A stretch of 37,585 nt of DNA from the IMG/VR virus record IMGVR_UViG_2541047802_000015. The stretch is one strand, 5' to 3'. Below the pieces are notes generated by a model. It was not told the DNA's origin, did no database searches, and saw only the letters and a list, made by a program, of their open reading frames with translations. Position numbers and translations under genes: made by a program. The stretch comes from a virus. Lineage: Duplodnaviria > Heunggongvirae > Uroviricota > Caudoviricetes. The stretch's first letter is position 1. The number at the start of each line of letters is the position of its first letter. Positions 3,261-36,640 of this stretch are shown here, one piece after another.

Positions 3261-3312
3261 GAGTGAAATCCTTACAATGTGTATAAATGAGAGGAAATAA
3301 AGGCCGGGGGCT

Positions 3313-4424: not shown

Positions 4425-4823
4425 TTATCTGGATTTGTTAACGTCTTTCGTCTCCTCTGGCAGATCTTCATCAAACAACCTGCCCTGCATCCGATCCAGT
4501 TCTTCTTTTCTGACCCGCTTAACCACGCTGTAGACCCACTGAAGCGAAACACCAAACTTGCGGGCCAGTTCGTGGTGGTTGCGTCCGTTAAACTCCCTGA
4601 AGATTTCCCGGTCGCGCTGACTGACCTTCCATACCATGCCCATCGGGAAATAAACGTTTTGCCCGCCCCAGACCTGCATCATTCGGTTCGCGACGGCCTG
4701 ACCAATCTGGTCGGCAATTGCGGGCTCAATATCAATAATCTCGCGAACGGTCTCAGAGGTATGCTGTGCCAGCTCCACCAGGAGTTCCGGCCCTTTACTT
4801 CGAAACTGATTCAGGTCGCTCAT
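4425..4823 (-). CDS. Mor/C-family transcriptional activator (candidate late-gene activator)
   Basis: 132 aa; C-terminal HTH region with DREIFREFNGRNHHELARKFGVSLQWVYSVV resembling the Mu Mor/C family. Confidence 0.65.
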   Translation of the reverse strand: MSDLNQFRSKGPELLVELAQHTSETVREIIDIEPAIADQIGQAVANRMMQVWGGQNVYFPMGMVWKVSQRDREIFREFNGRNHHELARKFGVSLQWVYSVVKRVRKEELDRMQGRLFDEDLPEETKDVNKSR

Positions 4824-15747: not shown

Positions 15748-15792
15748 TCTTAACGCGCTTTAAAATCCTCCGCGCCACGCTTTTGCCATGCT
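15748..15792 (+). promoter_or_regulatory. putative late promoter upstream of the lysis cassette
   Basis: Conserved block TCTTAACGCGCTTTAAAATC, 19-nt spacer, then CATGCT; same architecture recurs at 23148, 29058 and 35148. Confidence 0.5.
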
Positions 15793-15819
15793 GTCTCCAC
15801 ACAACAAGGAGACATTTTC

Positions 15820-16170: not shown

Positions 16171-16172
16171 TC

Positions 16173-23008: not shown

Positions 23009-23054
23009 GTTTTCTCTCTTCAGGCGGGTGATTTATCATTGCCAGCGAATGAGG

Positions 23055-23097
23055 GGCTGTATTACCTTTATAAAGGCTTTACAGCCTCTGTTTTATA
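23055..23097 (+). terminator. large imperfect palindrome with T-tract after the G-like gene
   Basis: GGCTGTA...TACAGCC arms enclose the perfect palindrome CCTTTATAAAGG (23065-23076), followed by TCTGTTTTATA. Confidence 0.4.
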
Positions 23098-23147
23098 ACT
23101 GCCTCCGGTTCACCACATTGCTTTCCCTGTCCTTCTCCCCTGATGTT

Positions 23148-23192
23148 TTCTAAAGCAGATTAAAATCGCCGGGCCCGCATTTCTCACAAACT
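23148..23192 (+). promoter_or_regulatory. putative late promoter upstream of the I-like gene
   Basis: Block TTCTAAAGCAGATTAAAATC, 19-nt spacer, then CAAACT followed by GTCTCC; matches the element upstream of the lysis cassette. Confidence 0.45.
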
Positions 23193-23222
23193 GTCTCCGA
23201 CAACATAACGCGGGACAGCAAA

Positions 23223-24338
23223 ATGTCAGCCATTCACATTTTTAAAGCCGGTACTCATACCGATATGCACGGCAAAAAACTGCCGTTCACGCCAGACGAT
23301 CTTGCCGCCTGCGTGAAAGCCTATGACCCGTCCGTCCATGAAGCACCACTCGTGATTGGTCATCCCAGAACGGAAGACCCGGCGTGGGGCTGGGTGAAAG
23401 CCCTGTCGCTCAGCGGCGTCGATCTGATGGCAGAGCCTGCCCAGCTGGACCCGCAGTTTGCTGAGATGGTCACCGACGGACGATTCAAAAAAGTGTCTGC
23501 CTCTTTCTACCTCCCGGATTCACCGTCCAATCCGAAGCCCGGCGTGCTCTACCTGCGCCATGTGGGCTTTCTTGGGGCACAGCCACCTTCCGTCAAAGGA
23601 CTGAAACAGGTGTCCTTCAGTGAGCAGGAAGAAGGTGTGGTGGAGTTCGCCGACTGGCAGGCCATCACGAATGCCTCACTGTGGGGAAAGCTGCGCGATT
23701 TTCTGATCGCCCGCTTCAGTCTGGACGAAGCAGAAAAAGTTCTGCCGGAATGGCAGCTCAACAGTCTGCGCGAAGAGGCGTACCGCGACACACCGTCGCA
23801 GGATGCAGCAGGTGCGCAATTCAGTGAGACAGGCCAGGTGCCGTCTTCCGCAAGTAACGAGGAATCATCGATGACAAAAGAAGAGATTGAAGCCCTTCAG
23901 GCGGAGAACCGCCGCCTGAAGCAGCAGGCTGCTGATCGCGATGCGCGTGATGCACAGGTCAGACAGGAGCAACTGCATAAGGACAATGTGGCCTTTGCAG
24001 AAAAACTGGTCGCAGAGGGCCGTCTGGCTCCCCGCGCCTCCTCCGTGGTGGTTGCCCTGCTGGATTCCGTCGCCGGTGGCGACAAGCCGGTGGAGTTTGC
24101 TGAGGGGGAAAGCCGCACACCGCTGGCCACCGCCTTCCGTTCGCTGCTCTCCGACGGGGAGCCGGTGATGAACTTCGCCGAACAGGCCACGAAGGAGCGT
24201 GTCGGCGACACGGTGAAAGTGGATGTGACGGAGTTTGCAGAAGCCGACCCTGACCGTCTGGCACTGCACCAGAAGGCTGTGGAACTGTCGAAAAAAGAAG
24301 GCATCAGCTATGAGGCTGCTGTCACACGCTGCCTGTAA
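23223..24338 (+). CDS. head protease/scaffold protein (Mu I-like)
   Basis: 371 aa; N-terminal region resembling the Mu I family and an acidic/coiled-coil C-terminal scaffold-like region. Confidence 0.75.
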   Translation: MSAIHIFKAGTHTDMHGKKLPFTPDDLAACVKAYDPSVHEAPLVIGHPRTEDPAWGWVKALSLSGVDLMAEPAQLDPQFAEMVTDGRFKKVSASFYLPDSPSNPKPGVLYLRHVGFLGAQPPSVKGLKQVSFSEQEEGVVEFADWQAITNASLWGKLRDFLIARFSLDEAEKVLPEWQLNSLREEAYRDTPSQDAAGAQFSETGQVPSSASNEESSMTKEEIEALQAENRRLKQQAADRDARDAQVRQEQLHKDNVAFAEKLVAEGRLAPRASSVVVALLDSVAGGDKPVEFAEGESRTPLATAFRSLLSDGEPVMNFAEQATKERVGDTVKVDVTEFAEADPDRLALHQKAVELSKKEGISYEAAVTRCL

Positions 24339-24347
24339 GGAGAAAGC

Positions 24348-25301
24348 ATGTCTGATTACTTAAAAAATAAACGCGTTGTTGATCCTGTTATGACCAGCAT
24401 CGCGCGTGGCTACAGGAATGCAGCCTTCATCGGAGAACATATATTTCCGGTTGTGTATACGGACAGAGAAGCGGTAACGGTCCCCGTTTTCGGGAGATCA
24501 GCGTTTGTGGAAGTTGATACCGTCCGTGCTGTGGGGGCAGACAGTAATGTTCTGATCAGGGAAAAGAGCAGTACGCTGGATCTGGTGTTGCATGAGCACG
24601 ATCTTGCTGCACCTGTGGACTACCGTGAACAGACGGAGTCAATGTTCAACGAAGAGGCCAAGGCAATCCGGCGGGTGACAAATGGCATTCATCTTCGCCG
24701 TGAGCTTATTGCTGCCCGTCTTGCGCAGGACAAAAAAGTGTACCCGGCATCTTCGGTAAAGACGATGACGTCTGTTGAACGCTGGGAAGGAGGCCATGGT
24801 GATCCTGTTGAGGTCATTGAGGGAGGCATTGAAGCTGTGCGAAGTAAGATCGGGGTCAGACCCAATCTGATGGTCATGGGAGCCAGTGTGATGCCCCTGC
24901 TGAGATATCATCCAGCCATCACCACTGCTCTGGGACTTAATGAGAGAAAACGGATCACCCCGCAAATCCTCAGGGAGCTTTTTGGTCTGGACAAGGTCAT
25001 TGTGGGTGAGCCTGTTTCCATGGCATCCATGACTGATGCAGGCAACCGGAACAAATATCCGGTGGACATCTGGGGAGATAATCTCATGCTCTTCTATGTC
25101 ACTCCACCGCGAGAAGGTGCCGAAAGTGCCGACGAAAATGAACCATCGTTCGGGTATACCCTGCGACGTAAGGGGATGCCGGTGGCAGATAAATACGATG
25201 GAGTGGGCGGAAAGGTGAAGTACTGCCGTTATACCGACATCTATAAGGTGGCGGTCGTGGGCGGGGATGCCGGTTATCTCGTTACAAATATAGTGAAGTA
25301 A
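24348..25301 (+). CDS. major capsid protein (Mu T-like)
   Basis: 317 aa; strong RBS; position after protease/scaffold. Confidence 0.8.
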   Translation: MSDYLKNKRVVDPVMTSIARGYRNAAFIGEHIFPVVYTDREAVTVPVFGRSAFVEVDTVRAVGADSNVLIREKSSTLDLVLHEHDLAAPVDYREQTESMFNEEAKAIRRVTNGIHLRRELIAARLAQDKKVYPASSVKTMTSVERWEGGHGDPVEVIEGGIEAVRSKIGVRPNLMVMGASVMPLLRYHPAITTALGLNERKRITPQILRELFGLDKVIVGEPVSMASMTDAGNRNKYPVDIWGDNLMLFYVTPPREGAESADENEPSFGYTLRRKGMPVADKYDGVGGKVKYCRYTDIYKVAVVGGDAGYLVTNIVK

Positions 25302-25311
25302 GGAGAAGTCT

Positions 25312-25647
25312 ATGACTACACAGCAGGTCACTCTGACCATGACAGTCACAGCCAGTACTGCACTTACTCAGCAGAGGTTTGTGGGAGCAGATAACGGCGC
25401 ATGTAAGCAGGGTGCCGTTGCCGTCGGTGTCGCCCAGGTGGATGCCCGTGCAGGTGATCTGACCCCGGTGAGTGTGACCGGGATCCTTGCAGTTGAAACG
25501 GGAGCGGCAGTTTCCAGAGGGGCACTGGTACAGTCTGATGCCAAATCAAGGGCTGTTCCTCAGGCTGACAGTGGTAAATCCTGTGGCATTGCACTGGATG
25601 AGGCAAAGGCCGAAGGCGACATCATCCGTATCCTGCGCGGGGTGTGA
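25312..25647 (+). CDS. small head-associated protein (possibly DUF2190-like)
   Basis: 111 aa, Ala/Val/Thr-rich; directly downstream of the major capsid gene. Confidence 0.45.
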   Translation: MTTQQVTLTMTVTASTALTQQRFVGADNGACKQGAVAVGVAQVDARAGDLTPVSVTGILAVETGAAVSRGALVQSDAKSRAVPQADSGKSCGIALDEAKAEGDIIRILRGV

Positions 25648-25648
25648 G

Positions 25649-26095
25649 ATGTACTGCACCCTGGAGGATTTGCTTGCGCAGGTGCCGGAACGAACGCTGA
25701 TCGAGCTCACCAGTGAAGATATGGACTTCGACTCGCCTGCAACAGTGAATACCCGTGTGGTGGACAGCTGTATCCGCTATGCCGACGAGCTGATTGATGC
25801 CCATCTGCGCGGACGCTATATCCTGCCGCTGGCGGAGATACCGACCGTTCTGCGGGACATTGCCATCACGCTGGTCCGTTACCGGCTCTACGCCCGCCGC
25901 CCGGAAGGTGACCTCCCGGATACGGTGAAGGATGACCACAAAGAAGCGCTGCGGCAACTCAGGGAGTTACGTGATAACAGGCTCACGCTGGGGCTGCCGT
26001 CCACTCAGAAAGATGTGCCTGAGCCAGGAGAGTTTCGTGTACGCAGTCGCCCGGCCACTTTCGGCGGTCGTGACGGTTTACTGGAGAAATACTGA
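25649..26095 (+). CDS. head completion protein (Mu gp36-like, DUF1320-like)
   Basis: Start refined to the ATG at 25649, one nt after the upstream stop; the track's longer ORF (25487) overlaps the previous gene out of frame. Confidence 0.55.
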   Translation: MYCTLEDLLAQVPERTLIELTSEDMDFDSPATVNTRVVDSCIRYADELIDAHLRGRYILPLAEIPTVLRDIAITLVRYRLYARRPEGDLPDTVKDDHKEALRQLRELRDNRLTLGLPSTQKDVPEPGEFRVRSRPATFGGRDGLLEKY

Positions 26096-26559
26096 TGAAC
26101 GTTCTGCCCGTCCTTGATGCGGTACTGGCCCGGTTACGCGAGAACCTGCCGCAACTGCAGGTGGAGTACTTCCCGGAGAAACCGGCTGAATATCGCCTGA
26201 ACCATCCGGTTGGCGCGTTGCTGCTGAGCTATGCCGGTTCGCGCTTTGACAGGCCGGATGATACCGGTGCGGTGATCCAGCCTCAGACTATCCAGCTCTG
26301 CGTCACGGTGGTCTTCCGCCAGCTCAACGGTAAAAAAGGGGCGATTAATGTCCTGGATGCTGTCCGCCGCATTCTCGGTGGCTACACCCCGCCCGGCTGC
26401 CGCCGTCGTATCTGGCTGACCCGCGAGGTGTTTATCGGTGAAGTCAGGGGGCTGTGGCAATACGCCCTCGACTTCGCGACTGAAAGCGTCTTTATCGAAG
26501 ACAGCGATTTACCGTCCGGCCCGCTGTTAACCGAAGTGAACTATGAGGAAAGCGAGTGA
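26095..26559 (+). CDS. head-tail joining protein (Mu gp37-like, DUF1834-like)
   Basis: 154 aa; ATGA-coupled to upstream gene. Confidence 0.5.
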   Translation: MNVLPVLDAVLARLRENLPQLQVEYFPEKPAEYRLNHPVGALLLSYAGSRFDRPDDTGAVIQPQTIQLCVTVVFRQLNGKKGAINVLDAVRRILGGYTPPGCRRRIWLTREVFIGEVRGLWQYALDFATESVFIEDSDLPSGPLLTEVNYEESE

Positions 26560-26810
26560 TGAAAGCATACCGCTATTCCGGCCCGGCCAGCGGCGTCACG
26601 CTGTCGGACGGAACCGAAATCCTGCTCTGGCCGGGGAAGACGTTTTCCCTGCCGGAGGAGCATGACTACGTGAAGGTACTGGTGGCGCTGAAACATCTGA
26701 CGCCGGTACCTGAAGAGACTAAACTCGCCGGCACACCGGCTGTGCAGTCACCAAAGCGCAGAAGCAGCAGTGACAGCGAAGTGAAAACGGAGGACACCCA
26801 TGGCAGCTAA
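26556..26810 (+). CDS. hypothetical small protein (84 aa) preceding the sheath gene
   Basis: Coupled ORF in the structural operon. Confidence 0.4.
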   Translation: MMKAYRYSGPASGVTLSDGTEILLWPGKTFSLPEEHDYVKVLVALKHLTPVPEETKLAGTPAVQSPKRRSSSDSEVKTEDTHGS

Positions 26811-28227
26811 CTATCTGCATGGTCCCGAAACCATTGAGGTGGAAAACGGTGCCCGCCCGGTTAAAACGGTGAAATCTGCCGTTATTGGCCTGATTGGTAC
26901 CGCCCCGATGGGGGACGTCAATACGCTGGTACAGTGCCTGTCTGAGAAAGACGCAGCGGCATTTGGCAGCCAGTTCACCGGCTTTACCATTCCGCAGGCG
27001 CTGGATGCGATTTATGACCATGGTGCAGGCACCGTTCTGGTCATTAACGTCCTCGACCCGGCGAAACATAAAACGGCGATCCAGGGTGAAGTGGTTACCT
27101 TTGACAAATCGACAGGGCAGGCCAGACTTGCGCATCCGGTTGTCGCTAATGTGGTGGTGAAAAACAGTGAAGGCAGCACCACCCACACGGCGAACACGGA
27201 CTACCGTGTTGATGCGCAGGCGGGTGTGCTCACGAACCTGGGCAAGGCTATTGAGGCCGGTGGCAGCGTGAAGGTGAGCTATGAGTACGCGGACCCGTCG
27301 AAGGTGACTGCGGCGGACATCATCGGCGGGGTGAACAGCGCCGGAAACCGAACCGGCATGAAGCTGCTTAACGACAGCTTCAACCTGTACGGCTATTTTG
27401 CCAAAATTCTGATTGCGCCGGTGTTCTGCACCCAGAAGAGTGTAGCAGTTGAGCTTATCGCCATGACAGAGAAGCTGGGCGCGGTAACCTACATTGATGC
27501 GCCTGTCGGTACCACCTTTGCACAGGCTCTGGCAGGTCGTGGCCCGGAAGGCACCATTAACTTCAATACCAGCTCCGACCGCGTCCGTCTGTGCTATCCG
27601 CATGTGAAGGTATATGACCCGGTGACAAACACGGAGCGTCTGGAGCCGCTCAGCCAGCGTGCAGCAGGTCTGCGTGCCAGAGTCGATCTGGACAAGGGCT
27701 ACTGGTGGTCATCCTCCAATCAGGAGATTCTGGGGATCACCGGCGTGGAGCGCCAGCTGTCCGCGATGATTGATGACCCGCAGAGTGAGGTGAACCTGCT
27801 TAACGAACAGGGGATCACCACGGTATTCAGCAGTTACGGCAGCGGCCTTCGTCTGTGGGGTAACCGGACGGCAGCATGGCCAACGGTCACCCATATGCGT
27901 AACTTTGAGAACGTTCGCCGCACCGGTGATGTGATCAACGAGTCCATTCGTTATTTCAGCCAGCAGTACATCGACATGCCGATTACTCAGGCGCTGATTG
28001 ATGCACTGACGGAGTCGGTCAACGCCTACGGTCGCAAAATGACTGGTGATGGTGCGGTACTGGGCTTCCGTTGCTGGTTTGATCCGGCCCGCAATCCGGA
28101 GACGGAGCTGGCCGCCGGGCACCTGTTGCTGAGCTACAAATATACGCCACCACCGCCGCTGGAGCGACTGACGTTTGAGACTGAGATCACCTCGGAATAC
28201 CTGTTAACCCTGAAAGGGGGCAACTGA
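26800..28227 (+). CDS. tail sheath protein
   Basis: 475 aa; size and position before the tube gene; family-like N-terminus. Confidence 0.8.
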   Translation: MAANYLHGPETIEVENGARPVKTVKSAVIGLIGTAPMGDVNTLVQCLSEKDAAAFGSQFTGFTIPQALDAIYDHGAGTVLVINVLDPAKHKTAIQGEVVTFDKSTGQARLAHPVVANVVVKNSEGSTTHTANTDYRVDAQAGVLTNLGKAIEAGGSVKVSYEYADPSKVTAADIIGGVNSAGNRTGMKLLNDSFNLYGYFAKILIAPVFCTQKSVAVELIAMTEKLGAVTYIDAPVGTTFAQALAGRGPEGTINFNTSSDRVRLCYPHVKVYDPVTNTERLEPLSQRAAGLRARVDLDKGYWWSSSNQEILGITGVERQLSAMIDDPQSEVNLLNEQGITTVFSSYGSGLRLWGNRTAAWPTVTHMRNFENVRRTGDVINESIRYFSQQYIDMPITQALIDALTESVNAYGRKMTGDGAVLGFRCWFDPARNPETELAAGHLLLSYKYTPPPPLERLTFETEITSEYLLTLKGGN

Positions 28228-28748
28228 TGTCAAAGATTGAGATAAACCGCATCACGAATGCCAACATCTATCTGGATGGTACTAACCTGCTGGGACGGGC
28301 TGAGGAAGTTAAACTCCCCGATGTCTCCATGATTATGCAGGAACACAAGGCGCTGGGGATGGTGGGTAAGGTGGAACTCCCGGCTGGTTTTGACAAACTG
28401 GAAGGCGAAATCAAATGGAACAGCTTTTACCGCGATGCGATGCTGTCTGCCGCGAACCCGTACAGGTCGCTGGCACTGCAGTGTCGTTCCAGCGTCCAGC
28501 GCTACAGCTCGCAGGGGCTGATTGACGAAATCCCGCTGGTCACCTTCCTGACGATTATGTTCAAGAAGAACCCGCTGGGGACGTTCAAACAGCACGAGAA
28601 CGCCGAGTTCTCCAGTAGCTTCACATGCACGTATATCAGACAGGTACTGGATGGTGAAGAGCTGCTGCAACTGGACTATCTGGCCAACATCTTCCGGGTC
28701 GGCGGTGTTGATCAACTGACTGACTACCGTATCAATATCGGGGGCTGA
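28227..28748 (+). CDS. tail tube protein
   Basis: 173 aa; immediately after the sheath gene with overlapping start/stop. Confidence 0.75.
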   Translation: MSKIEINRITNANIYLDGTNLLGRAEEVKLPDVSMIMQEHKALGMVGKVELPAGFDKLEGEIKWNSFYRDAMLSAANPYRSLALQCRSSVQRYSSQGLIDEIPLVTFLTIMFKKNPLGTFKQHENAEFSSSFTCTYIRQVLDGEELLQLDYLANIFRVGGVDQLTDYRINIGG

Positions 28749-28750
28749 CG

Positions 28751-29032
28751 GTGAGTGTTGAACTGACGGATAAAGGAGGACGATGTGCGGCACTGGGCAT
28801 GTCAAATGGTACGTGGTTTACCCTCCTTGATATTCCGGGGGTGGAAACCCTTTTTAATACCCGTAAAACCAATGACCCGATTGACTGCACACGTTCAAAG
28901 GCCCGCAGACTGGCGGATTTGATTGAAGCATGGGAGCCTCCCGACCACTGGTTCTCCGGCACCGGCAAATCTGAGGGAAAGACGCTTCTCATCGCTTTCC
29001 TGCGTAACTGCAAGGGGTTTCGCACTTGCTGA
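28751..29032 (+). CDS. hypothetical small protein between tube and chaperone genes
   Basis: 93-codon ORF with a GTG start, followed by a hairpin; could be non-coding. Confidence 0.3.
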   Translation: MSVELTDKGGRCAALGMSNGTWFTLLDIPGVETLFNTRKTNDPIDCTRSKARRLADLIEAWEPPDHWFSGTGKSEGKTLLIAFLRNCKGFRTC

Positions 29033-29038
29033 CATCAC

Positions 29039-29060
29039 AGGGGCTCCGGCCCCTTCTTCT
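29039..29060 (+). terminator. short GC hairpin with T-rich tail inside the tail operon
   Basis: 6-bp stem (AGGGGC pairs with GCCCCT) with TCCG loop, then TCTTCTT; overlaps the start of a putative late-promoter block. Confidence 0.3.
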
Positions 29061-29102
29061 TAATCTCCTTTAATATCCGTCACGCGCTTCTCCCGACATA
29101 CT
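29058..29102 (+). promoter_or_regulatory. putative internal late promoter upstream of the tail chaperone gene
   Basis: Block TCTTAATCTCCTTTAATATC, 19-nt spacer, then CATACT followed by GCCC; about 27 nt leader to ATG 29130 with AGGAG RBS. Confidence 0.45.
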
Positions 29103-29129
29103 GCCCTGAACTTACACAGGAGCACAATC

Positions 29130-29465
29130 ATGTCACAGACCCCATCCGATACTTTTAAATTGTCTTATCCCTTCACCACTGCTGCAGGCACCAGAATTGA
29201 GCTGGTTGAACTGAAACGCCTGACGGTAAAAGACCTGAAGCAGGTGCGCAAAATCAGCAAAAACCCGGCAGACTGGGACGAACCGCTGATTGCCCGCAGT
29301 ACTGGTCTTCTCCCGGAAGATCTCGACAATATGGATCTGGCTGATTACCTGCAGTTACAGAAACGATTTCAGCTCATCACGGGGATGGGTGAGAGCGACA
29401 AAGGCGCTGACGCAGGCGCAGGGGCTGCTGGCGAGATGGTTCCGGTTTCAGCCGGGGGAGATTGA
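29130..29465 (+). CDS. tail assembly chaperone
   Basis: 111 aa, acidic; position between tube and tape-measure genes; AGGAG RBS; overlapped by a second-frame ORF. Confidence 0.6.
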   Translation: MSQTPSDTFKLSYPFTTAAGTRIELVELKRLTVKDLKQVRKISKNPADWDEPLIARSTGLLPEDLDNMDLADYLQLQKRFQLITGMGESDKGADAGAGAAGEMVPVSAGGD

Positions 29466-29547
29466 TGCCCTCGATACTGACGATCTGGAGATGTGGCTGG
29501 AGCAGGCTGAAGAGCAAATAAAAAGCGAGTACGGCGACAAATCATAG
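29290..29547 (+). CDS. overlapping +1-frame ORF, candidate frameshift extension of the tail chaperone
   Basis: +1 frame is open through the chaperone 3' end and continues 82 nt past its stop; only the distal about 28 codons are likely to be translated as a fusion. Confidence 0.3.
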   Translation: MPAVLVFSRKISTIWIWLITCSYRNDFSSSRGWVRATKALTQAQGLLARWFRFQPGEIDALDTDDLEMWLEQAEEQIKSEYGDKS

Positions 29548-29552
29548 TACAG

Positions 29553-29573
29553 ACAGCCGCCAGTAGCGGCTGT
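29553..29573 (+). other. hairpin between chaperone region and tape-measure gene
   Basis: ACAGCCGC/GCGGCTGT 8-bp stem with 5-nt loop; weak T-tract after it. Confidence 0.3.
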
Positions 29574-29622
29574 TCTGCGTTATCCCCTCACGTCTTTTCA
29601 CCTTCCCCGGAGGTTAACCACT

Positions 29623-32313
29623 ATGTCGGGACAGTTTTCAGTCGGCGTTGTTATCGGCGGGATGATTGGCAGCACATTCCGTTCTGCAATGAGCGGTACC
29701 CGCCGTGCGCTTGATTCCCTGAGCGATACCTCACGCCGCCTGCAGGAACGTCAGAACGCTTTAACCCGTGCAACAGAACGTTATGGTCAACTGGGCTCTT
29801 CCCGGATGCAGCATCTCAACAGCGAGCTGCTGCGGGTAAGCCGCACCATGGAGCAAATTGAGCGCCAGCAGCGCCGTCTGTCAGCGGCATCAGCCACCAG
29901 TGATGCGCTGAAAGCTAACCGCATGGCGCTGTATGGTCAGGGGATTGAAGCGTATGGCATGGCACAGACTGTTTATCATACGGTTTCCCCTGCCGTTCAG
30001 CAGTCCATGTCTTTTCAGGACAAAATGATTGATATGTCGATCACCGCAAAATATGACAATAAAACGCGGGATGCACTTGCCGGACAGATAAAAGGCTGGG
30101 CGCAAAAATACAATCAGTATCAGGATGAACTGCAGGAGGCGGTGGGTTCGCTCATCAGCGACAATATTGATAACTTGTCAGATATCGGTTTTCTGATGCC
30201 GGATATTGCCCGCGCGGCAACGGCAACACGCACGTCATCTCAGGACTGGGCAAAAGTGGCCGCAGTCTGGCAAAACTCCCTGAAAGGTGCGGCCAGAGAT
30301 TTTAGTGCCGTCCAGAATATTATGGCTTATGCCGGTGACCAGGGGTCATTTGAAATCCCGGATCAGGTCAAGTGGATGCAGTCCCTGGCCCCAATGATGG
30401 CGGGTATTGCCAGTGGAAAAGAGGCTGTTGCTGAAATCGGGGCCAGTCTCCAGATAGCAAAAATCGGTGCGGGCTCCACCGACGAAGCAGCCAATAATTT
30501 TAAAAACTTTCTTACCAAAATTTTTGCCCGCGATACTCAGAAACAGTTTGCTGATCTGGGTATTGATTTGCAGGGTTCTGTTGCGAGTTATAAGGCTGCG
30601 GGGATCTCTCCGATTGAAGGGATGTTGAGTGTTATAGAACGTTACCTCAATGCCAAAAGCCCCGAAGCGCTGGCCGGCTTCAAATCCGCCATGAAAATAA
30701 AGAATGATACGGCAAGAGATGAGGCACTTCAGGCTCTGGCGAAAAACTTTGGTCTGGGCGATATGTTCGCGGATATGCAGGTCATGGCATTTATCCGCCC
30801 GATGCTGGCCAACATGGACAGATATCGCGAGATCCGTGCCGGTGCTCTCAGGGCTGCGGATAACGATTTGCTTGCCAGTGCTTACGATCAGCGGCTGAAA
30901 TCTCCCCTTGAAGCCACTAAAGCGCTTATGGTCAGCAGTCGCGATCTGGCTATTACGCTGGGCGATCAGCTCGCCCCCTCTTTTATTTCTCTGACTCAGG
31001 AGCTGATCCCACTCATTCAGGGGGCAAAACACTGGGTGGCGACTCACCCGCAATTTGTCAGTGGGGCTTTTAAGCTCATCAGTGCGCTCCTTGCGATTAA
31101 GATAGCGACTGTTGGTCTCAAACTGGGGCTGAATCTCCTTATTTCCCCCTTTGTGAACGTCTGGAAAACTGCTGTTTTACTCCGGACCAACTGGCATCGA
31201 CTGACTACCGCACTAGGAGAAGGTGGCAAATTACGCTGGCTTGTCACTGGATTTAGCCGACTGACCAGCGGAGGACTGAAACTCAGCAAAGTTCTGGCGG
31301 GCAGCCTCGTTCGCGGTTTTATGAGCGCTGCACGTGCCGTTCTCTGGATTGGGCGAGCGCTGATGATGAATCCCATCGGTCTCGTTATCACCGCTGTCGC
31401 GGCAGCAGCTTACCTTATCTACCGCAACTGGGGGACAGTCAGTGGCTGGTTTAAACAGCGCTGGGCTGACATTCAGGAAGCCTTTAACGGCGGTATCGCG
31501 GGAACTGGTAAGCTGCTGATTAACTGGTCGCCGGCAGGGCTGCTCTATAAAGCCTTTGCGGCTGCGCTGAAATATTTCGGCGTTGCTCTGCCGGCAAAGT
31601 TCACCGACTTCGGTGGCCATCTTGTCGACGGTCTGATTAACGGTATCAAAAACAAATGGGGGTCGCTCAAATCCAGTGTAACCGGAATGGGTGACAGCAT
31701 CAGTGGCTGGTTCAGTGAAAAGCTGGGTATTCATTCGCCGAGCCGCGTGTTTATGGGCTTTGGTGACAATATCGCGCAGGGGGCCGCCATTGGCCTGCAG
31801 CGGAGCACTCCGATTGCAGCTCTGGCCGGGCAGCGAATGGCCAGTGAACTGCTCCCCAGAATGCCCGTGAGCATTCAGGGGCCAGAAATACGGGATAACA
31901 CTTCAGGTGTTCGCTTCAGTATGCCGTTGCCCGATATCAACGGGTTTATGTCGTCTGCTAAAAATGCGATCGGATCCGTAATCAATAGTTTGTCTTCCAT
32001 GCCCGCTATTCCGATCTCCACCCGGGCATCGACTTTACCAGGTCAACGTCTGGCAAATGAGATGACACCGGATGTTCCCCGTATCCCCTCGCCTGAAATC
32101 CTGGCTGCCGGATATTCAGGCCGTGGTGCAGCTGCAACCGGCGGTGGAACGTCTGGTGGTATCCAGGTCAGCTTTAATCCTCAGTTTTTCCTCAATGGCA
32201 GGGAAACCACAGCGCCTGCAGGACTGACTGGTGCCCTGAATATGAGTCTGCATGAGCTGGAAAAAATGCTGGAGCGTCTGCTGGCTCAGAAACAACGTAA
32301 GGAGTACCGCTGA
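29623..32313 (+). CDS. tail tape measure protein
   Basis: 896 aa; Ala/Gly-rich with helical N-terminal half and hydrophobic central segments; canonical position after the chaperone. Confidence 0.85.
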   Translation: MSGQFSVGVVIGGMIGSTFRSAMSGTRRALDSLSDTSRRLQERQNALTRATERYGQLGSSRMQHLNSELLRVSRTMEQIERQQRRLSAASATSDALKANRMALYGQGIEAYGMAQTVYHTVSPAVQQSMSFQDKMIDMSITAKYDNKTRDALAGQIKGWAQKYNQYQDELQEAVGSLISDNIDNLSDIGFLMPDIARAATATRTSSQDWAKVAAVWQNSLKGAARDFSAVQNIMAYAGDQGSFEIPDQVKWMQSLAPMMAGIASGKEAVAEIGASLQIAKIGAGSTDEAANNFKNFLTKIFARDTQKQFADLGIDLQGSVASYKAAGISPIEGMLSVIERYLNAKSPEALAGFKSAMKIKNDTARDEALQALAKNFGLGDMFADMQVMAFIRPMLANMDRYREIRAGALRAADNDLLASAYDQRLKSPLEATKALMVSSRDLAITLGDQLAPSFISLTQELIPLIQGAKHWVATHPQFVSGAFKLISALLAIKIATVGLKLGLNLLISPFVNVWKTAVLLRTNWHRLTTALGEGGKLRWLVTGFSRLTSGGLKLSKVLAGSLVRGFMSAARAVLWIGRALMMNPIGLVITAVAAAAYLIYRNWGTVSGWFKQRWADIQEAFNGGIAGTGKLLINWSPAGLLYKAFAAALKYFGVALPAKFTDFGGHLVDGLINGIKNKWGSLKSSVTGMGDSISGWFSEKLGIHSPSRVFMGFGDNIAQGAAIGLQRSTPIAALAGQRMASELLPRMPVSIQGPEIRDNTSGVRFSMPLPDINGFMSSAKNAIGSVINSLSSMPAIPISTRASTLPGQRLANEMTPDVPRIPSPEILAAGYSGRGAAATGGGTSGGIQVSFNPQFFLNGRETTAPAGLTGALNMSLHELEKMLERLLAQKQRKEYR

Positions 32314-33197
32314 TGTTTGCCGTACTGGGTGATATTGAGTTTGATCTGATTACCTACTGGGACGGCTTCGAGGCCACGTTCGGCGTCGATTATGCGGAGC
32401 ATGCCCGCATCGGGGGTAAGCCTGGCCTGCAGTTCGTCGGCGACAGGCTGGACGAAATCCAGATAAGTCTGGTCTTCCATCAGCATTATTGTGCACCCGA
32501 TGTGGAGCTGGCGAGACTGCGAACAACCATGAAAGCCCATCAGGCACTGGCGCTGGTCTTCGGCAACGGTGACTATCGTGGCTGGTTCGTGATTACCGAT
32601 GTGACCGCAACCAGCGAGCAGACAGACAGCACCGGTAACGTGCTGGCTGTCAGTGCCACCGTGTCTCTCCGGGAATACACCGGTGATCCGAAAAATCCTC
32701 TGCAACCACCGGCAATACGCACGAAGCTCCCGGGTGTCGGGGCGGTCTCCGGTGCCATTCCTTCACCTTCAGGGGTGGCGCAGTTCATCCGCAACGGCGT
32801 CAACTATGCGAAACAGGCGCAGTCTGTACTCCAGACCACTATCAGCGCCGTTCGGGTGACACAGAAAATGAAGGATAACCCCGTTGTCGCACTGACCCGT
32901 GTGCCGGGGCTGATGAGCGGACTGGGTAATATCTCCGGGGCTCTGGGGAAAAGTGTTCCGGCGTTTAACGCACTCTCTGAATCCATGCCCGATGCCATCA
33001 GTCTGGCCAGAACAGCCAGCGAAGCAGCCACGTATGTACAGCAGGCACAGTCTGCGCTGAGTGGTGTGGACAAAAGAAATATTGCAGGTGCTCTGGATAC
33101 CGTTTCCGGGCAGCTTAACGCCGCCAGCACAGCATTCAACCGCATGTCTCCGGGATTAAGTGCAATGGCCGCCAGAATACTGACGAGGAGTGTGTGA
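32313..33197 (+). CDS. tail protein (Mu N / DNA-circularisation N-terminal-domain-like, P2 gpU-like)
   Basis: 294 aa; N-terminus MFAVLGDIEFDL... resembles the gpU/DNA_circ_N family; position after the tape measure. Confidence 0.6.
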   Translation: MFAVLGDIEFDLITYWDGFEATFGVDYAEHARIGGKPGLQFVGDRLDEIQISLVFHQHYCAPDVELARLRTTMKAHQALALVFGNGDYRGWFVITDVTATSEQTDSTGNVLAVSATVSLREYTGDPKNPLQPPAIRTKLPGVGAVSGAIPSPSGVAQFIRNGVNYAKQAQSVLQTTISAVRVTQKMKDNPVVALTRVPGLMSGLGNISGALGKSVPAFNALSESMPDAISLARTASEAATYVQQAQSALSGVDKRNIAGALDTVSGQLNAASTAFNRMSPGLSAMAARILTRSV

Positions 33198-33409
33198 TGT
33201 TTCTTGAACATGTTACCCGTGACGGAGAGCGCTGGGATTCGCTGGCATGGCAGTACTACGGTGACCCGCTGGGCTATCCCCGGATTATTGCCGCCAATCC
33301 GCACGTGGCCATCACGCCGGTGCTGCCCTCCGGGCTGTTGTTACTGATCCCGGTGATTGAGGCTGAAGAAGCCCGTACAGAAGAGGATATTGCCCCATGG
33401 CTGAGATAA
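33194..33409 (+). CDS. tail protein X-like (small LysM-like tail protein)
   Basis: 71 aa; ATGA-coupled; position and size like P2 gpX. Confidence 0.55.
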   Translation: MMFLEHVTRDGERWDSLAWQYYGDPLGYPRIIAANPHVAITPVLPSGLLLLIPVIEAEEARTEEDIAPWLR

Positions 33410-34551
33410 ACAGCACTGCGCAAGTCACATCAGCGTTAACCAGCGTCAGCGATGTGCTGACACCGGTGTTCACTCTGTGGTATCTGCAGAAAAACATCAC
33501 CTCTGATATCGCGCCTTATGTCACCCGTGTGACCTGGAGCGATAACATCAAAAATGAGTCCGATACCATTGAGGTGGAGCTGGACGACACCGATGGCCGC
33601 TGGCTGGATAAGTGGTATCCGGGCAAGGGTGACACGCTGACGCTGAAAATGGGCTATCAGGGCGAGAAGCTGCTGTCCTGCGGTACGTTCTCTATAGACG
33701 AGATCGAAGTGAGTTCGCCCGCTTCCGTTGTTTCTATCCGTGGGGTGGCCACCTCGGTTAACAGTGCTCTGCGGACTAAAACCAGTCGTGGTTTTGAGAA
33801 CACCACGCTGGCAGCTGTTGCGGGGCGGATTGCCAGAAAGCACCGACTGAAACTGGTGGGCAGCATTGAGTCCATCAGAATCGACCGGGTGACCCAGTAT
33901 GCTGAAACCGACGTGGGTTTTCTGCGCCGGCTGGCCAGCGAGTATGGTTATGCAGTGAAAGTGGTCAGTGACCAGCTGATTTTTTCTCATCTGGCCACAC
34001 TGCGCAGTCAGGAGCCGGTCAGGCAGTTAAAACCGCAGGATGTGGCCCGCTTTTCCCTGCGTGACACCATCAACCGGGTCTATAAATCTGCAAAGGTAAA
34101 ACACCAGAAAAGCAGCAGTAAAAAACTGATCGTCTACGAAGCTGATGGTGGTACCCGTGAAAGCGACAAAAAGCTCAAAGGTGGTAAGGTTACCAGCGCT
34201 GACTCACTTAAAGTTAACAGCCGCGTCAGCGACCCGGACAGTGCCCGGATTAAAGCGGATTCAGCACTGGCCAGACATAACGAATACCAGCAGAACGGCT
34301 CCCTGACGCTGACGGGAACACCTCAACTGACAGCAGGCAACAAAATTGAACTGGTGGGTTTTGGGCAGTTATCCGGGCCATGGCTCATAACCACTGCCCG
34401 CCATGCGTTTGACCGTAACAGCGGCTACACCACAGAGCTGGAAGTGGCACGGGGGCCAGTCACAAGAGGGAAAAAACAAAAAACTCAGAAACTCACGGTT
34501 TATCACCCGGATGGCAGTACATCGACGGTGATTAAGGAGAAGAAAAAATGA
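33397..34551 (+). CDS. baseplate hub / late control gene D-like protein (Mu P-like)
   Basis: 384 aa; position and size typical of gpD/Mu P. Confidence 0.75.
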   Translation: MAEINSTAQVTSALTSVSDVLTPVFTLWYLQKNITSDIAPYVTRVTWSDNIKNESDTIEVELDDTDGRWLDKWYPGKGDTLTLKMGYQGEKLLSCGTFSIDEIEVSSPASVVSIRGVATSVNSALRTKTSRGFENTTLAAVAGRIARKHRLKLVGSIESIRIDRVTQYAETDVGFLRRLASEYGYAVKVVSDQLIFSHLATLRSQEPVRQLKPQDVARFSLRDTINRVYKSAKVKHQKSSSKKLIVYEADGGTRESDKKLKGGKVTSADSLKVNSRVSDPDSARIKADSALARHNEYQQNGSLTLTGTPQLTAGNKIELVGFGQLSGPWLITTARHAFDRNSGYTTELEVARGPVTRGKKQKTQKLTVYHPDGSTSTVIKEKKK

Positions 34552-35144
34552 CTGGTGTCACTCGTCAGGTCGGTACGGTCAGTGCCGTTGATGCCGACAG
34601 GGTTCAGGCCCGCGTTCGTCTGCCTGAATGCGATAACCTGCGCACAAACTGGCTTAACGTGCTGCAGCGCAATACCCAGGATAACAAAGATTACTGGCTC
34701 CCTGACGTGGGGGAGCAGGTTGAGGTGCTGCTCGATGCCAACGGCGAGGATGGTGTTATTCTGGGCGCGGTGTATTCAGACGTCGATAAACCACCGTTCA
34801 GTGACAAAAATATCCGGGGAACCCGGTTTGCTGATGGTGCAGAGTACAGCTACAACCGGAAGACGCACACTCTGACCATCCGGGGCGGCATTGAGCATAT
34901 TGTCATTGAGTGTGGTGCTGATGTGGTATTGAAAACACAGAAAGCCACGATTGACGCACCGGAAACCGAACTTACCGGAGATCTGCGTGTCAGGGGAAAG
35001 CTGATTTACGAAGGAGGCATGGCGGGTTCTGGTGGTAAAGGTGTTACCGCGACCATCCATGGCAATATCGAGATTAAAGGGAATGCCCATGCCACGGGCA
35101 GTATGCTGTCTGATGGCGAAAACTCCAGCCACCACTCCCACTGA
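34548..35144 (+). CDS. baseplate spike protein (gpV-like)
   Basis: 198 aa; Gly-rich C-terminus, His-rich end; position before the gpW-like gene. Confidence 0.7.
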   Translation: MTGVTRQVGTVSAVDADRVQARVRLPECDNLRTNWLNVLQRNTQDNKDYWLPDVGEQVEVLLDANGEDGVILGAVYSDVDKPPFSDKNIRGTRFADGAEYSYNRKTHTLTIRGGIEHIVIECGADVVLKTQKATIDAPETELTGDLRVRGKLIYEGGMAGSGGKGVTATIHGNIEIKGNAHATGSMLSDGENSSHHSH

Positions 35145-35147
35145 GCT

Positions 35148-35192
35148 TCTTAAACGCCTTTAATATCAGCGTTCCCGCACGGGGGCAATACT
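35148..35192 (+). promoter_or_regulatory. putative internal late promoter or RNA element upstream of the gpW-like gene
   Basis: Block TCTTAAACGCCTTTAATATC, 19-nt spacer, then AATACT followed by GCCC; only 6 nt before ATG 35199 and inside hairpin 35181-35198. Confidence 0.4.
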
Positions 35193-35198
35193 GCCCCC

Positions 35199-35546
35199 AT
35201 GAAAACGACCTCAGTATTCTGGCAACCAGCCCTGCAGGCTCCCGGCGAAATTGTCCGGGGGCTGGATGATATCCGGCAGGCGATTCAAATTATCCTGCGG
35301 ACTCCCCGCGGCAGCGACCCGCATCGCCCGGAGTTCGGCAGCAATCTGCATCTTTATATCGACTGGCCTGTAGACCGGGCCATTCCGCATGTGGTGCGCG
35401 AATCCGTCGATGCCATCCGGCGCTGGGAGCCCCGCTGCCAGCTTATGTCAGTTAAACCCGCCGTCGACGGCGAACATCTTACGCTCCGGGTGAGCTGGAA
35501 AGGCTCAGACGGACAGACCCGGACTCAGGAGCTGCTATGGCGCTGA
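35199..35546 (+). CDS. baseplate wedge protein (gpW / gp25-like)
   Basis: 115 aa; size and position typical of GPW; start may be leaderless or misplaced. Confidence 0.6.
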   Translation: MKTTSVFWQPALQAPGEIVRGLDDIRQAIQIILRTPRGSDPHRPEFGSNLHLYIDWPVDRAIPHVVRESVDAIRRWEPRCQLMSVKPAVDGEHLTLRVSWKGSDGQTRTQELLWR

Positions 35547-36640
35547 CAGAACCCGATTTTATTGAACGCGATGCCGACAAAATCACGGCAGAAATGATTG
35601 CGAAGTATGAAGCGGATACCGGCAAAACGCTGTACCCGGCACAGGCAGAACGTCTGCTGATTGATCTGTGGGCCTATCGCGAAATGCTGGTCAGGGTTGC
35701 GGTACAGGAGGCAGCAAAGCAGAATCTGGTCGCCTTTGCCCGTGAGCCGATGATTGATTACCTCGGTGAACTGGTCGGTGTATACCGTCTTGCCGCGCAG
35801 CCTGCCACCACCACGCTCCAGTTCTCCGTAGATGAGGCACTGGCCATTGATGTGCTGATCCCGGCAGGCACCCGCGTCAGCGCTTCCGACAGCGTTATTT
35901 TTGCCACCGATACAGATGTGGTACTGAAGCCCGGATTGCTGCTGGTCAATGTCACGTCCACCTGTACCGAACCCGGTACCGCTGGTAACGGCTGGCAACC
36001 TGCGCAGGTCAGTCAGTTACTCGATGAGATTGATAACGTCGACCTGCTGGTGAGCAATCTGACGGCCAGTTCCGGCGGTTCAGAACAGGAAGACGATGAC
36101 AGGCTCCGGGAGCGTATCAGGCTGGCCCCGGAGTCATTCACCAATGCCGGAAGCCGTGGCGCATACCGCTTTCATGCCATGCAGGCCCATCCCAACATTG
36201 TCGATGTTGCTGTGCTTTCCCCGGTTCCCGGGACCGTAGATCTGTATCCGCTGCTCAGTACCGGTCTGCCGGACGGCGGTGTTCTCACGCTGGTAGAGAG
36301 TTTCTGCTCTGATGAGAAAGTCAGGCCACTCACTGATACAGTGCGGGCTAAAACACCAGTGAAGGTGGATTACACCATTGAAGCCAGGATTACGATCTAT
36401 CGTGATCAGGATGCCAGGTCTGTAAAAGATGCCGCTAACAGCGCCATACAGAACTGGGTGGCATCACGTGCCGCCACGCTGGGGCGTGATATTGTCCCCA
36501 GCCAGATTATCAGTGCATTGTCCGTTTCCGGGGTGTACCAGGTTGAACTGGTGACACCGGCACTGCGGGTGGTGGCAGAAAACGAATGGGCAAACTGTAC
36601 GGCAATCACTCTTAACATGAGTGGAGTGTCTGATGACTGA
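35537..36640 (+). CDS. baseplate protein J-like (Mu gp47-like)
   Basis: 367 aa; position and size typical of gpJ. Confidence 0.75.
   Translation: MALTEPDFIERDADKITAEMIAKYEADTGKTLYPAQAERLLIDLWAYREMLVRVAVQEAAKQNLVAFAREPMIDYLGELVGVYRLAAQPATTTLQFSVDEALAIDVLIPAGTRVSASDSVIFATDTDVVLKPGLLLVNVTSTCTEPGTAGNGWQPAQVSQLLDEIDNVDLLVSNLTASSGGSEQEDDDRLRERIRLAPESFTNAGSRGAYRFHAMQAHPNIVDVAVLSPVPGTVDLYPLLSTGLPDGGVLTLVESFCSDEKVRPLTDTVRAKTPVKVDYTIEARITIYRDQDARSVKDAANSAIQNWVASRAATLGRDIVPSQIISALSVSGVYQVELVTPALRVVAENEWANCTAITLNMSGVSDD

Follow-up and report, generated by a model that had tools for sequence, protein, structure and literature searches.

What purpose might be served by a sequence block that stands twice inside the tail genes of a phage, once in the T-rich tail of a hairpin and once directly in front of a gpW-like baseplate gene? 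A sequence-only reading took the two copies for internal late promoters. Both are present in the tail genes as it described: the block CTTCTTAAnnnCCTTTAATATC lies at 29056-29077 and 35146-35167 of the window (the whole stretch of DNA analyzed, 37,585 nt), and as an exact 22-mer with a 3-nt gap it has two matches there and none in shuffled sequences. On sequence grounds the element is a BcepMu-like (Bcepmuvirus) transposable prophage of a kind common in E. coli. It is 98.8% identical to PhiKM, a phage classified in Bcepmuvirus, and has the same gene order as BcepMu; its V-W junction is carried by 636 of 5426 complete E. coli genomes, with related elements in Enterobacterales, Burkholderia, Pseudomonas, and Salmonella.

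With a looser pattern, YTAA-N6-TTAAWAKC-N19-NANNNT, the window yields four matches, compared with none in 100 shuffles (Table 1). All four are gapless, intergenic, and on the plus strand, and they lie 5′ of the lysis, head, tail-chaperone, and gpW operons; the core TTAA-N6-TTAA occurs just three times in the 37.6 kb. The associated hexamers all have A in the second position and T in the sixth, but are weak as -10 elements (4/6 positions match), and at none of the four sites did a sigma-70 scan find a -35/-10 pair. The dyad lies at -49 to -36 of the predicted start, with its center at -42.5, within a conserved block from -52 to -32. BcepMu has the motif at the same four junctions, 5′ of gp21, gp32, gp41, and gp49. 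The annotated start of BcepMu gp32 falls within the predicted -10. At P1, which precedes a holin gene (PF13272), transcription predicted to begin near 15799 would give a 21-nt leader with the Shine-Dalgarno (SD) sequence AAGGAG before ATG 15820; upstream of P4 there is a strong hairpin with a T-run (23052-23099).

Table 1. Positions of the promoters, hairpins, and genes considered here, in window coordinates.
Feature	Position	Strand	Remarks
Mor/C-family transcription activator	4425..4823	-	Pfam PF08765 Mor, E 1e-43
P1 (predicted), 5′ of holin/lysis operon	15748..15798	+	site TCTTAACGCGCTTTAAAATC, 19 nt, CATGCT 15787-15792
P4 (predicted), 5′ of head protease/scaffold-like gene (ATG 23223)	23148..23198	+	site TTCTAAAGCAGATTAAAATC, 19 nt, CAAACT 23187-23192
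Terminator-like hairpin AGGGGC-TCCG-GCCCCT	29039..29054	+	dG -12.8 kcal/mol, z -3.0; in terminator scan
P2 activator site (predicted) TCTTAATCTCCTTTAATATC	29058..29077	+	dyad TTAA-N6-TTAA at 29060-29073
P2 -10-like hexamer CATACT	29097..29102	+	19-nt spacing from site kept in relatives
Tail assembly chaperone gene	29130..29465	+	Pfam PF10109 Phage_TAC_7, E 5e-21
Baseplate spike gene (gpV-like)	34548..35144	+	Pfam PF04717, PF18715
P3 activator site (predicted) TCTTAAACGCCTTTAATATC	35148..35167	+	dyad TTAA-N6-TTAA at 35150-35163, -49 to -36 of A35199
7-bp hairpin GGGGGCA-ATAC-TGCCCCC	35181..35198	+	stems 35181-35187/35192-35198, loop ATAC
P3 -10-like hexamer AATACT	35187..35192	+	-12 to -7 if A of ATG 35199 = +1
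gpW/gp25-like baseplate wedge gene	35199..35546	+	Pfam PF04965

This arrangement resembles that of the late promoters of phage Mu. In Mu, the dyad recognized by C and Mor is imperfect, 16 bp long, and centered at -43.5, and the promoters have a -10 but lack a -35 (PMC2582627; PMC4287176); Plys requires the region from -52 to -34, and the Mor dyad extends from -51 to -36 (PMC2582627; PMC4287176). The prophage encodes an activator of the same family (PF08765), with 56% identity to BcepMu gp01, 31% to Mu Mor, and 35% to Mu C; tblastn found no second Mor/C-family homologue in the window, making this the sole copy there. By analogy with Mu, it is presumed to activate all four late promoters. As at Mu Pm, Plys, PI, PP, and Pmom, a -10 without a -35 is combined with an imperfect dyad over the -35 region, centered near -43; Mu likewise has four late promoters, among them promoters for the lysis genes and for a head gene (I in Mu) and others inside the tail and baseplate genes. 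The Mu Mor-E18 intergenic region, which holds the Mor-dependent Pm, matches the relaxed pattern TAA-N6-TTAA-N23-NANNNT, and there too a terminator-like hairpin, with a T7 run, overlaps the Pm site. The prophage site, TTAAA-N4-TTTAA, is nearer to Pm than to the C sites (TTAT-N6-ATAA in Pmom). Unlike Mu, where Mor and then C act in a cascade, the prophage has one activator, and its internal tail promoters stand before the chaperone and W genes rather than before P; in Mu, gp45 and gp46 overlap and lack an intervening promoter.

With four copies that share one spacing from a -10-like hexamer, a single Mor/C activator, and a Mu-like geometry, the proposal of internal late promoters is supported, and the same architecture is suggested for all four sites; the evidence is comparative, which leaves it short of proof. 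The late genes would then be read from four sigma-70 promoters dependent on the one activator. In each, the imperfect dyad TnTTAAA-N4-TTTAAnA, with TTAA-N6-TTAA as its core, would occupy about -49 to -36; a -35 is lacking, and the site is followed after exactly 19 nt by a weak -10 (cAtaCT) and then by a G+C-rich discriminator. By analogy with Mu, a dimer of the activator would bind the dyad and recruit or remodel the host RNA polymerase. The block could instead be unrelated to transcription, serving as a site for some other phage or host protein (a nucleoid, transposition, or packaging factor) or being a short mobile repeat; it is A+T-rich and partly palindromic, as are many sites for architectural proteins. 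We find this scarcely credible for four co-oriented intergenic copies lying directly 5′ of late operons, each exactly 19 nt from its -10-like box, with counterparts at the same four BcepMu junctions and with the block staying joined to the downstream gene where morons have been inserted.

At promoter P2, the hairpin follows a 93-aa ORF that is itself downstream of the tail tube gene. The overlap of the block with the T-rich hairpin tail, as originally noticed, is borne out: the tail TTCTTCTTAAT (29055-29065) continues into the activator site. The U-tail, UUCUUCUUAAU, is interrupted by a C, so termination may be weak. Among 72 relatives bearing the promoter pattern, 60 have a hairpin at the same position with different stem sequences, and BcepMu has a canonical GGCCCGCTTCGGCGGGCC-TTTTTTAAT there, with a T6 tail. 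In Salmonella-type relatives the equivalent hairpin has no T-run, and no promoter stands between it and the chaperone gene, so it cannot be a full terminator in that clade. In the Enterobacterales, Pseudomonas, and CACGAT clades the promoter site itself is preserved 5′ of the chaperone gene; in the BcepMu clade it is degenerate. The suggestion that termination and re-initiation are coupled here finds support in a weaker form, as a terminator-like hairpin regularly placed before the left half-site. The hairpin may close the head/sheath/tube unit, by partial termination at 29039-29063, with the T-rich left arm of the activator site doubling as its U-tail, and P2 (29058-29108) would restart transcription for the chaperone, tape-measure, and baseplate genes. 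A predicted start near 29109 would give the chaperone gene, first in a unit running through the tape measure and on through baseplate V, a 21-nt leader with the SD AGGAG before ATG 29130.

The second copy presents a different layout. The gpV-like stop codon is 1 nt before the P3 block, the V-W gap is 54 nt, and neither the sequence nor the terminator scan has a terminator between V and W in this window. As had been reported, AATACT ends 6 nt before ATG 35199. The gpW ORF, whose frame opens only ~45 nt upstream and so leaves no room for a second start, has this ATG as its sole in-frame start; the PGAP and GenBank annotators call it identically. No GGAG, GAGG, or AGGA occurs within 20 nt of it, the only G-run being 13-18 nt upstream, inside a stem. 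Alone among the tail genes, gpW is neither SD-led nor tightly coupled to the preceding gene; the gpJ-like gene (35537) overlaps its end by 10 nt. P3 (35148-35198) is predicted to start transcription at, or 1-2 bases from, the A of ATG 35199, from which a leaderless gpW mRNA would follow: the message for gpW and the translationally coupled J-I-H genes would begin with the start codon and be translated by the leaderless route.

Conservation argues for this layout. Upstream regions of gpW were compared from Enterobacterales, Burkholderia, Pseudomonas, and Salmonella-type elements, with gpW identity down to ~51%. In an unfiltered scan, 99 of 104 distinct regions have, in order, the dyad, 19-20 nt, the -10, 5-8 nt, and an in-frame ATG; the gap from -10 to ATG is 6 nt in 96 of these 99, and the start codon is ATG in every one. 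GUG and UUG function poorly as starts without a leader, and the chaperone gene starts with GTG in several of the phages whose gpW starts with ATG. Counting the A of ATG as +1, A at -11 and T at -7 are invariant in 92 aligned regions, these being the 92 of 100 distinct regions that were selected for A and T at those hexamer positions. The Salmonella-type clade has a gtrABC moron inserted between V and W, and related loci of this type have a strong terminator directly upstream of the motif, so that W there needs a promoter of its own. From the kept order and spacing, the lack of an SD, the constant ATG, the -11 and -7 bases, and the moron and terminator upstream in some clades, a leaderless gpW mRNA is the best reading and is predicted here. 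Of the two options first offered for gpW, no leader or a start elsewhere, the former is favored, there being no other in-frame start. A point against it is that E. coli translates leaderless messages inefficiently, whereas W and its coupled genes encode structural proteins.

The -10 of P3 is also enclosed by a hairpin (35181-35198) whose last base immediately precedes the ATG. Its predicted stability is about -14 kcal/mol alone and about -18 kcal/mol in a 41-nt context (z -3.7). The hairpin that had been pointed out is real, but AATACT does not lie wholly in its loop: only the middle ATAC does, the first A and last T being in the stem. Across the enteric clade, z for the hairpin at this -10 is -3 to -4.8; it is not significant in the Burkholderia and Pseudomonas clades. 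Changes in the inner six pairs are all G.U-compatible, and the terminal pair is GC, AU, or a mismatch. By this model only RNA reading through from upstream promoters would contain the hairpin, which could conceivably then serve as a translational insulator that silences gpW on such RNA, so that in the BcepMu-like lineage the wedge/tail-fiber operon would be expressed only as leaderless mRNA; we offer this as a speculation and think it rather doubtful. Were it true, the amounts of wedge and fiber would be set solely by promoter firing and leaderless (70S-type) initiation.

The converse can also be imagined, with P3 a real promoter but gpW made mainly from P2/P4 read-through RNA at an internal AUG without an SD; the leaderless transcript would then contribute little, and the ATG would stand so near the promoter simply because the latter had been packed into a 54-nt gap. 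The lack of a terminator between V and W would permit this, leaderless translation is generally weak in E. coli, and internal starts without an SD do exist. On the read-through RNA, however, the AUG would be at the foot of a 7-bp G+C-rich stem, its U and G paired in the predicted fold; the 6-nt gap and unchanging ATG exceed what mere packing demands; and read-through cannot supply W in clades with a terminator directly upstream. We consider such an origin for gpW unlikely.

A start farther upstream would give gpW a short leader, and the sequence does permit one about 26 nt before the ATG, since the right half-site is -10-like: TAATAT and TAAAAT match the sigma-70 -10 at 4-5 of 6 positions, including A2 and T6, better than AATACT does. 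Were these the true -10s, transcription would begin ~7 nt after them, near 35173 and 29083, with leaders of 26 and 47 nt; cAtaCT would be a leader element, and the P3 hairpin would acquire a role in the transcript as a 5′-proximal stabilizing or regulatory stem-loop. Such promoters would have no -35, no TG extension, and nothing conserved upstream of -52 for an activator, and the left half-site would fall inside the promoter spacer. The right half of the matching Mu Pm sequence, TTAATC, does not resemble a -10, and the published Mor site (-51 to -36, PMC4287176) with a separate -10 fits the present spacing if the Pm -10 is TATCCT, which is our own reading of the Mu sequence. The downstream box has its invariant bases, A-11 and T-7, at the most critical -10 positions, and a 26-nt leader would still lack an SD. 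On this evidence a start at the half-sites is very improbable.

Leaderless initiation as predicted for P3 has partial precedents. Few leaderless mRNAs have been verified in E. coli and its phages; the classic case is lambda cI mRNA from PRM, which has AUG at its very 5′ end, lacks an SD, and comes from an activator-dependent promoter that adjoins the start codon. The cI gene, however, is a regulatory gene expressed in the lysogen, whereas gpW is a structural late gene heading a translationally coupled operon. We know of no Mu late gene reported to be leaderless. Closer in gene content is phage P2, whose tail genes V, W, J, I, and H are homologous to those of the prophage: PV is likewise an activator-dependent late promoter heading the baseplate/tail-fiber operon (V-W-J-I-H-G), and the GenBank record has transcription of the V operon begin at base 1 of the V coding sequence. 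In phage P2 it is V that is leaderless, and in the prophage W is predicted to be so; the phage P2 activator is a zinc-finger Ogr/Delta protein acting on TGT-N12-ACA near -55, rather than a Mor/C protein; and no hairpin encloses the -10 of PV, as one does at P3. If the hairpin does insulate gpW, P2-type baseplate operons would have gained a leaderless head twice independently, at gene V in phage P2 and at W in the prophage.

A literature search on this phage group found no transcript 5′ ends, activator binding, or N-terminal protein data; a dRNA-seq set covering BcepMu, from an uninduced lysogen of strain J2315 and so uninformative for late promoters, has no late-promoter starts. Taken as a whole, an explanation by four activator-dependent promoters, a restart at P2 behind a hairpin, and a leaderless gpW message from P3 seems to us probable.

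The strategies involved are already known, and the prophage is a tidy and strongly conserved example of them rather than a new kind of system: current concepts are unchanged, and the Mu and phage P2 paradigms are extended to another phage group. The promoter consensus allows late operons to be delimited, morons that escape late control to be predicted, and start-codon calls to be corrected, as for BcepMu gp32. As a structural late gene with a leaderless layout in ~100 distinct sequences, gpW would suit as a natural model of leaderless translation, and it would raise the question of why baseplate operons under two unrelated regulators, Ogr in phage P2 and Mor in BcepMu, should begin in this manner.

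The DNA from 28000 to 36000 is 98.8% identical to that of the Bcepmuvirus Escherichia phage PhiKM, and the gene order of the window is the same as that of Burkholderia phage BcepMu. Early genes, including those for a transposase, GemA, and a Mor-family activator, are on the minus strand; late genes are on the plus strand from 15820 onward, in the order holin, terminase, portal, head genes, sheath, tube, chaperone, tape measure, V (gpV-like spike), W (the gpW/gp25-like baseplate wedge gene, here gpW), and gpJ-like. The prophage is present in 636 of 5426 complete E. coli genomes. The first ~3 kb of the window are host or island DNA with a CbtA toxin gene; nucleotides 1–3300 are non-phage, and the left end of the prophage is between ~3.9 and 4.4 kb. 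The CbtA and DUF5983 genes at the left end of the window are typical of a CP4-44-like island. Two small ORFs were also seen in the tail region. The first (93 aa, GTG start), between the tail tube gene and a terminator-like hairpin, matches DUF7739 weakly, with a score short of the Pfam threshold, and BcepMu has no gene at this position. The second (85 aa) shares the 3′ part of the chaperone gene in a different frame and extends toward the tape measure gene, the usual layout of a programmed-frameshift chaperone pair.

Features of the prophage and its flank, in window coordinates
Feature	Position (nt)	Strand	Remarks
DUF5983 gene	649-1071		window left end, beside CbtA gene
CbtA-family toxin gene	1068-1445	-	PF06755, E 4e-59
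Mor-family activator	4425-4823	-	early gene; Pfam PF08765, E 1e-43
GemA	4795-5286	-	early gene
Transposase	9453-11222	-	early gene
Promoter-like copy before holin gene	15748-15798	+	hexamer CATGCT
Hairpin before head promoter	23052-23099
Promoter-like copy before head protease/scaffold-like gene	23148-23198	+	hexamer CAAACT
93-aa ORF	28751-29032
Hairpin before chaperone promoter	29039-29054
Block, chaperone site	29056-29077	+	hexamer CATACT
Tail assembly chaperone	29130 (start)	+	late gene
85-aa ORF	29290-29547
gpV-like spike	34548-35144	+	late gene
Block, gpW site	35146-35167	+	hexamer AATACT
Stem at gpW promoter	35181-35198
gpW/gp25-like wedge	35199-35546	+	late gene
gpJ-like	35537 (start)	+	late gene

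The sequence-only reading had proposed internal late promoters at 29058 and 35148, within the tail genes, and all the elements that it named are in place at the coordinates given. Both sites carry the block CTTCTTAA-N3-CCTTTAATATC, which is found nowhere else in the window with up to three mismatches allowed, nor in shuffled sequences. In a gapless alignment, the likeness between them extends beyond this 22-mer: a -10-like hexamer begins exactly 19 nt 3′ of each block, and G+C-rich sequence comes after it. Exactly four matches to YTAA-N6-TTAAWAKC-N19-NANNNT occur in the window, all on the plus strand and all intergenic, and none in 100 shuffles; the additional two precede the holin and head genes, and a T-rich left arm is common to all four. 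With +1 predicted at 7 nt after the hexamer, the leaders would be 21 nt (holin), ~23 nt (head gene), and 21 nt (chaperone), with a good SD in the first and last and a weak one in the head-gene leader. At the fourth copy, the predicted +1 falls on the A of the gpW ATG at 35199. At the holin promoter, GTCTCC (15793–15798) is complementary to GGAGAC (15811–15816), which contains the holin SD; since the 5′ arm is just upstream of the predicted +1 (15799), this pairing would form only in transcripts starting further upstream. No Rfam family was found in 22900–35600.

No late-promoter consensus or leaderless gene for BcepMu-like phages was found in the searchable literature, a search that did not extend to the original BcepMu paper (Summer et al., 2004, J Mol Biol); papers on KS10 and Burkholderia prophages do not treat promoters of this kind. 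Differential RNA-seq (dRNA-seq) tables for B. cenocepacia J2315 list no starts at the BcepMu late promoters, which counts neither for nor against them, because the prophage was uninduced there; BcepMu genes do respond to oxidative stress in Burkholderia (PMC2830190).

The gpW start was compared across loci drawn from one-genome-per-species contigs, IMG/VR, and phage records, with protein identities down to ~51%; these cover Enterobacterales, Serratia, Pseudomonas, Burkholderia (BcepMu and phiE255 types), Ralstonia-like groups, and a Salmonella STM4203-type remnant. The order dyad, 19–20 nt, -10-like hexamer, 5–8 nt, in-frame ATG is kept in 99 of 104 distinct upstream regions. All of these start with ATG, and 96 have 6 nt between the -10 and the ATG; two have 7 nt, and one has 5 nt. 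Four other regions have a decayed right half-site and retain GAAAAT, 6 nt, and the ATG; the last is a pET vector construct. This entry (IMGVR_UViG_3300050189_000002, 1–472), in which a T7 promoter, lac operator, and pET ribosome-binding site are fused to a Salmonella-type gpW coding sequence, is a “viral contig” that is in fact a laboratory expression construct within IMG/VR. The hexamer differs by clade (AATACT, CAACAT, CACGAT, CACCAT, GAAAAT, CAATAT, CATGAT), and A at -11 and T at -7, counted from the A of the ATG, are invariant in the 92 aligned regions (of 100 distinct ones), a set chosen for having these two bases. These are the two most important bases of the sigma-70 -10 element.

Within the window, AATACT is at 35187–35192 and ends 6 nt before the ATG, as had been noted. 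The gpW reading frame opens just ~45 nt upstream in every lineage, so no start earlier than this ATG is available; a conserved HWQPAL motif follows 7–14 residues after it, and GenBank and PGAP annotations give the same start. No SD precedes gpW, which is the sole tail gene in the window neither led by an SD nor abutting the preceding stop codon (in a table leaving out eight PhiKM gene starts unmapped by an exact 25-mer). The near-constant spacing, the uniform ATG, and the lack of an SD or an earlier start all favor the suggestion that gpW may be leaderless, and the comparative evidence likewise supports reading both tail sites as promoters. That the block is something other than a promoter element seems very improbable: the near-constant 6-nt gap, the uniform ATG start, and the invariant A-11 and T-7 argue against this, and, weighed jointly, against two further alternatives, translation of gpW from a polycistronic RNA and a -10 located in the right half-site.

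The first of these two, in which gpW is translated mainly from polycistronic RNA, is unlikely, in part since some clades have terminators upstream. The Salmonella-type remnant has a gtrABC glucosylation cassette separating V from W, and several related loci have a strong terminator (e.g., CCCGCC-ATTCA-GGCGGG followed by TTTTCTTTTTT) ending ~15 nt before the motif; other clades have different DNA inserted at this junction. In all clades with such insertions the motif stays attached to the gpW ATG. W could therefore not be supplied by read-through in these phages, and the predicted promoter would leave room for a leader of at most 0–2 nt. One example is a head-less BcepMu-like prophage remnant in Salmonella Infantis SARB27 (STM4199-4219 region, 15938–20345), which retains the Mor-family gene and tail genes and has its gtrA/gtrB/gtrC O-antigen glucosylation cassette exactly between gpV and gpW, with the promoter-ATG unit intact downstream of it. 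Several clades appear to have a hotspot for moron insertion at the V-W junction.

A leaderless first gene has a precedent in P2. No literature text describing P2 gene V as a leaderless mRNA was found; the point was settled by the reference GenBank record, in which the V-W-J-I-H-G operon is annotated as transcribed from the first nucleotide of the V coding sequence, with an Ogr-type activator site upstream. It is thus established that a P2-type baseplate operon can begin with a leaderless gene, although in P2 this gene is V, whereas in the window it would be W, one gene further down, under a different activator family. In BcepMu (NC_005882, 18813–18865), the head protease gene gp32 is annotated as starting at ATG 18850, inside the predicted -10, GATGAT (18849–18854), of the late promoter copy before it; the third ATG (18862) is 7 nt after this hexamer, and gp32 may start there, leaderless or nearly so.

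The 7-bp stem that ends at the base before the gpW ATG is real (approximately -14 kcal/mol alone; -18 kcal/mol, z -3.7, in its 41-nt context) and is specific to this promoter, with no comparable fold at the other three in the window. Its significance is high in the enteric clade (z -3 to -4.8), where the six inner pairs change only in G.U-compatible ways and the closing pair varies among GC, AU, and mismatch. In other clades the register often shifts and another stem forms (GCGGC/GCCGC, GGGGT/ACCCC, GCCCA/TGGGC); among the G+C-rich sequences of Burkholderia and Pseudomonas such stems do not exceed shuffles, and some members have none. A conserved RNA structure across the whole lineage was considered and is not claimed, because of these differences and because enteric covariation is weak, with compensatory GC/AU changes in one pair and a score reached by 14 of 500 shuffles. 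A transcript beginning at 35199 would lack the stem. In read-through RNA it would abut the AUG, whose U and G are also paired in the predicted fold. The most economical idea, a speculative one, is that the stem would suppress initiation on such RNA.

The chaperone promoter is preceded by a hairpin (-12.8 kcal/mol, z -3.0) with the T-rich tail TTCTTCTTAAT, and here coupled termination and re-initiation had been proposed. Among 100 distinct chaperone-gene upstream regions, 72 have the strict promoter pattern with 19-nt spacing, and 60 of these 72 have a stable hairpin (-8 kcal/mol or lower) ending 0–10 nt before the left half-site. The stems vary by clade (GGGGCTYCGGCCCC, GGGGGCCGYAAGGCTCCC, GGGGCCTGGTGGCCCC, GAAGCCCCGC...GCGGGGCTTC, GGCCCACTTCGGTGGGCC); BcepMu has a canonical GGCCCGCTTCGGCGGGCC-TTTTTTAAT running into a degenerate motif copy, then CAATGT. 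That position is kept as sequence changes argues for a functional hairpin, and the T-rich left arm of the predicted activator site can double as a U-tract. The proposal stands in part: a C breaks up the tail in the window, and Salmonella-type relatives keep the hairpin with neither T-run nor following promoter, so it cannot be a full terminator there. We take 29058 to be an operon boundary, where transcription would stop at least in part and is predicted to restart under the activator. A further, strong hairpin, GGGGCTGTA...TACAGCCTC followed by TGTTTTAT (approximately -20 kcal/mol, z -3.1), separates the head-operon promoter from the G-like gene; its BcepMu counterpart, in the same position, differs in sequence. 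Both phages have terminator-like hairpins ahead of the head and chaperone promoters and none ahead of the gpW promoter.

Mu C binds a 16-bp imperfect dyad centered at -43.5, with bases -52 to -34 required (PMC2582627); at the middle promoter Pm, the dyad bound by Mor covers -51 to -36 (PMC4287176). The Mu promoters that C and Mor serve have a -10 and lack a -35. In the profile of gpW upstream regions, counting the A of the ATG as +1, the conserved block spans -52 to -32, with a dyad TnTTAAA-N4-TTTAAnA centered at -42.5. The Mor-E18 intergenic region of Mu (NC_000929, 9175–9216), site of the Mor-dependent Pm, matches the relaxed pattern TAA-N6-TTAA-N23-NANNNT, and thus has the same spacing as the BcepMu-type late promoters; the match is to the Mu genome sequence, independent of published Pm numbering. 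A perfect terminator-like hairpin, AAAGCCGG-TTAAT-CCGGCTTT-TTTTTTT, overlaps this site as well. The remaining alternative, that the -10-like right half-site is the true -10, giving gpW a 26-nt leader, is improbable: there is no conserved sequence upstream of -52, and the right half of Mu Pm is not -10-like. The spacing shared with Mu Pm suggests that the single BcepMu-type activator has a Mor-like rather than a C-like site preference. The activator, the only Mor/C homologue in the window, shares 56% identity with BcepMu gp01 and is roughly as far from Mor (31% identity) as from C (35%).

By its sequence, then, the feature belongs to known kinds, Mu-type Mor/C promoters and the P2-like leaderless head of a baseplate operon. 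Its significance is that of an unusually clean and conserved, predicted leaderless layout in a widespread prophage.
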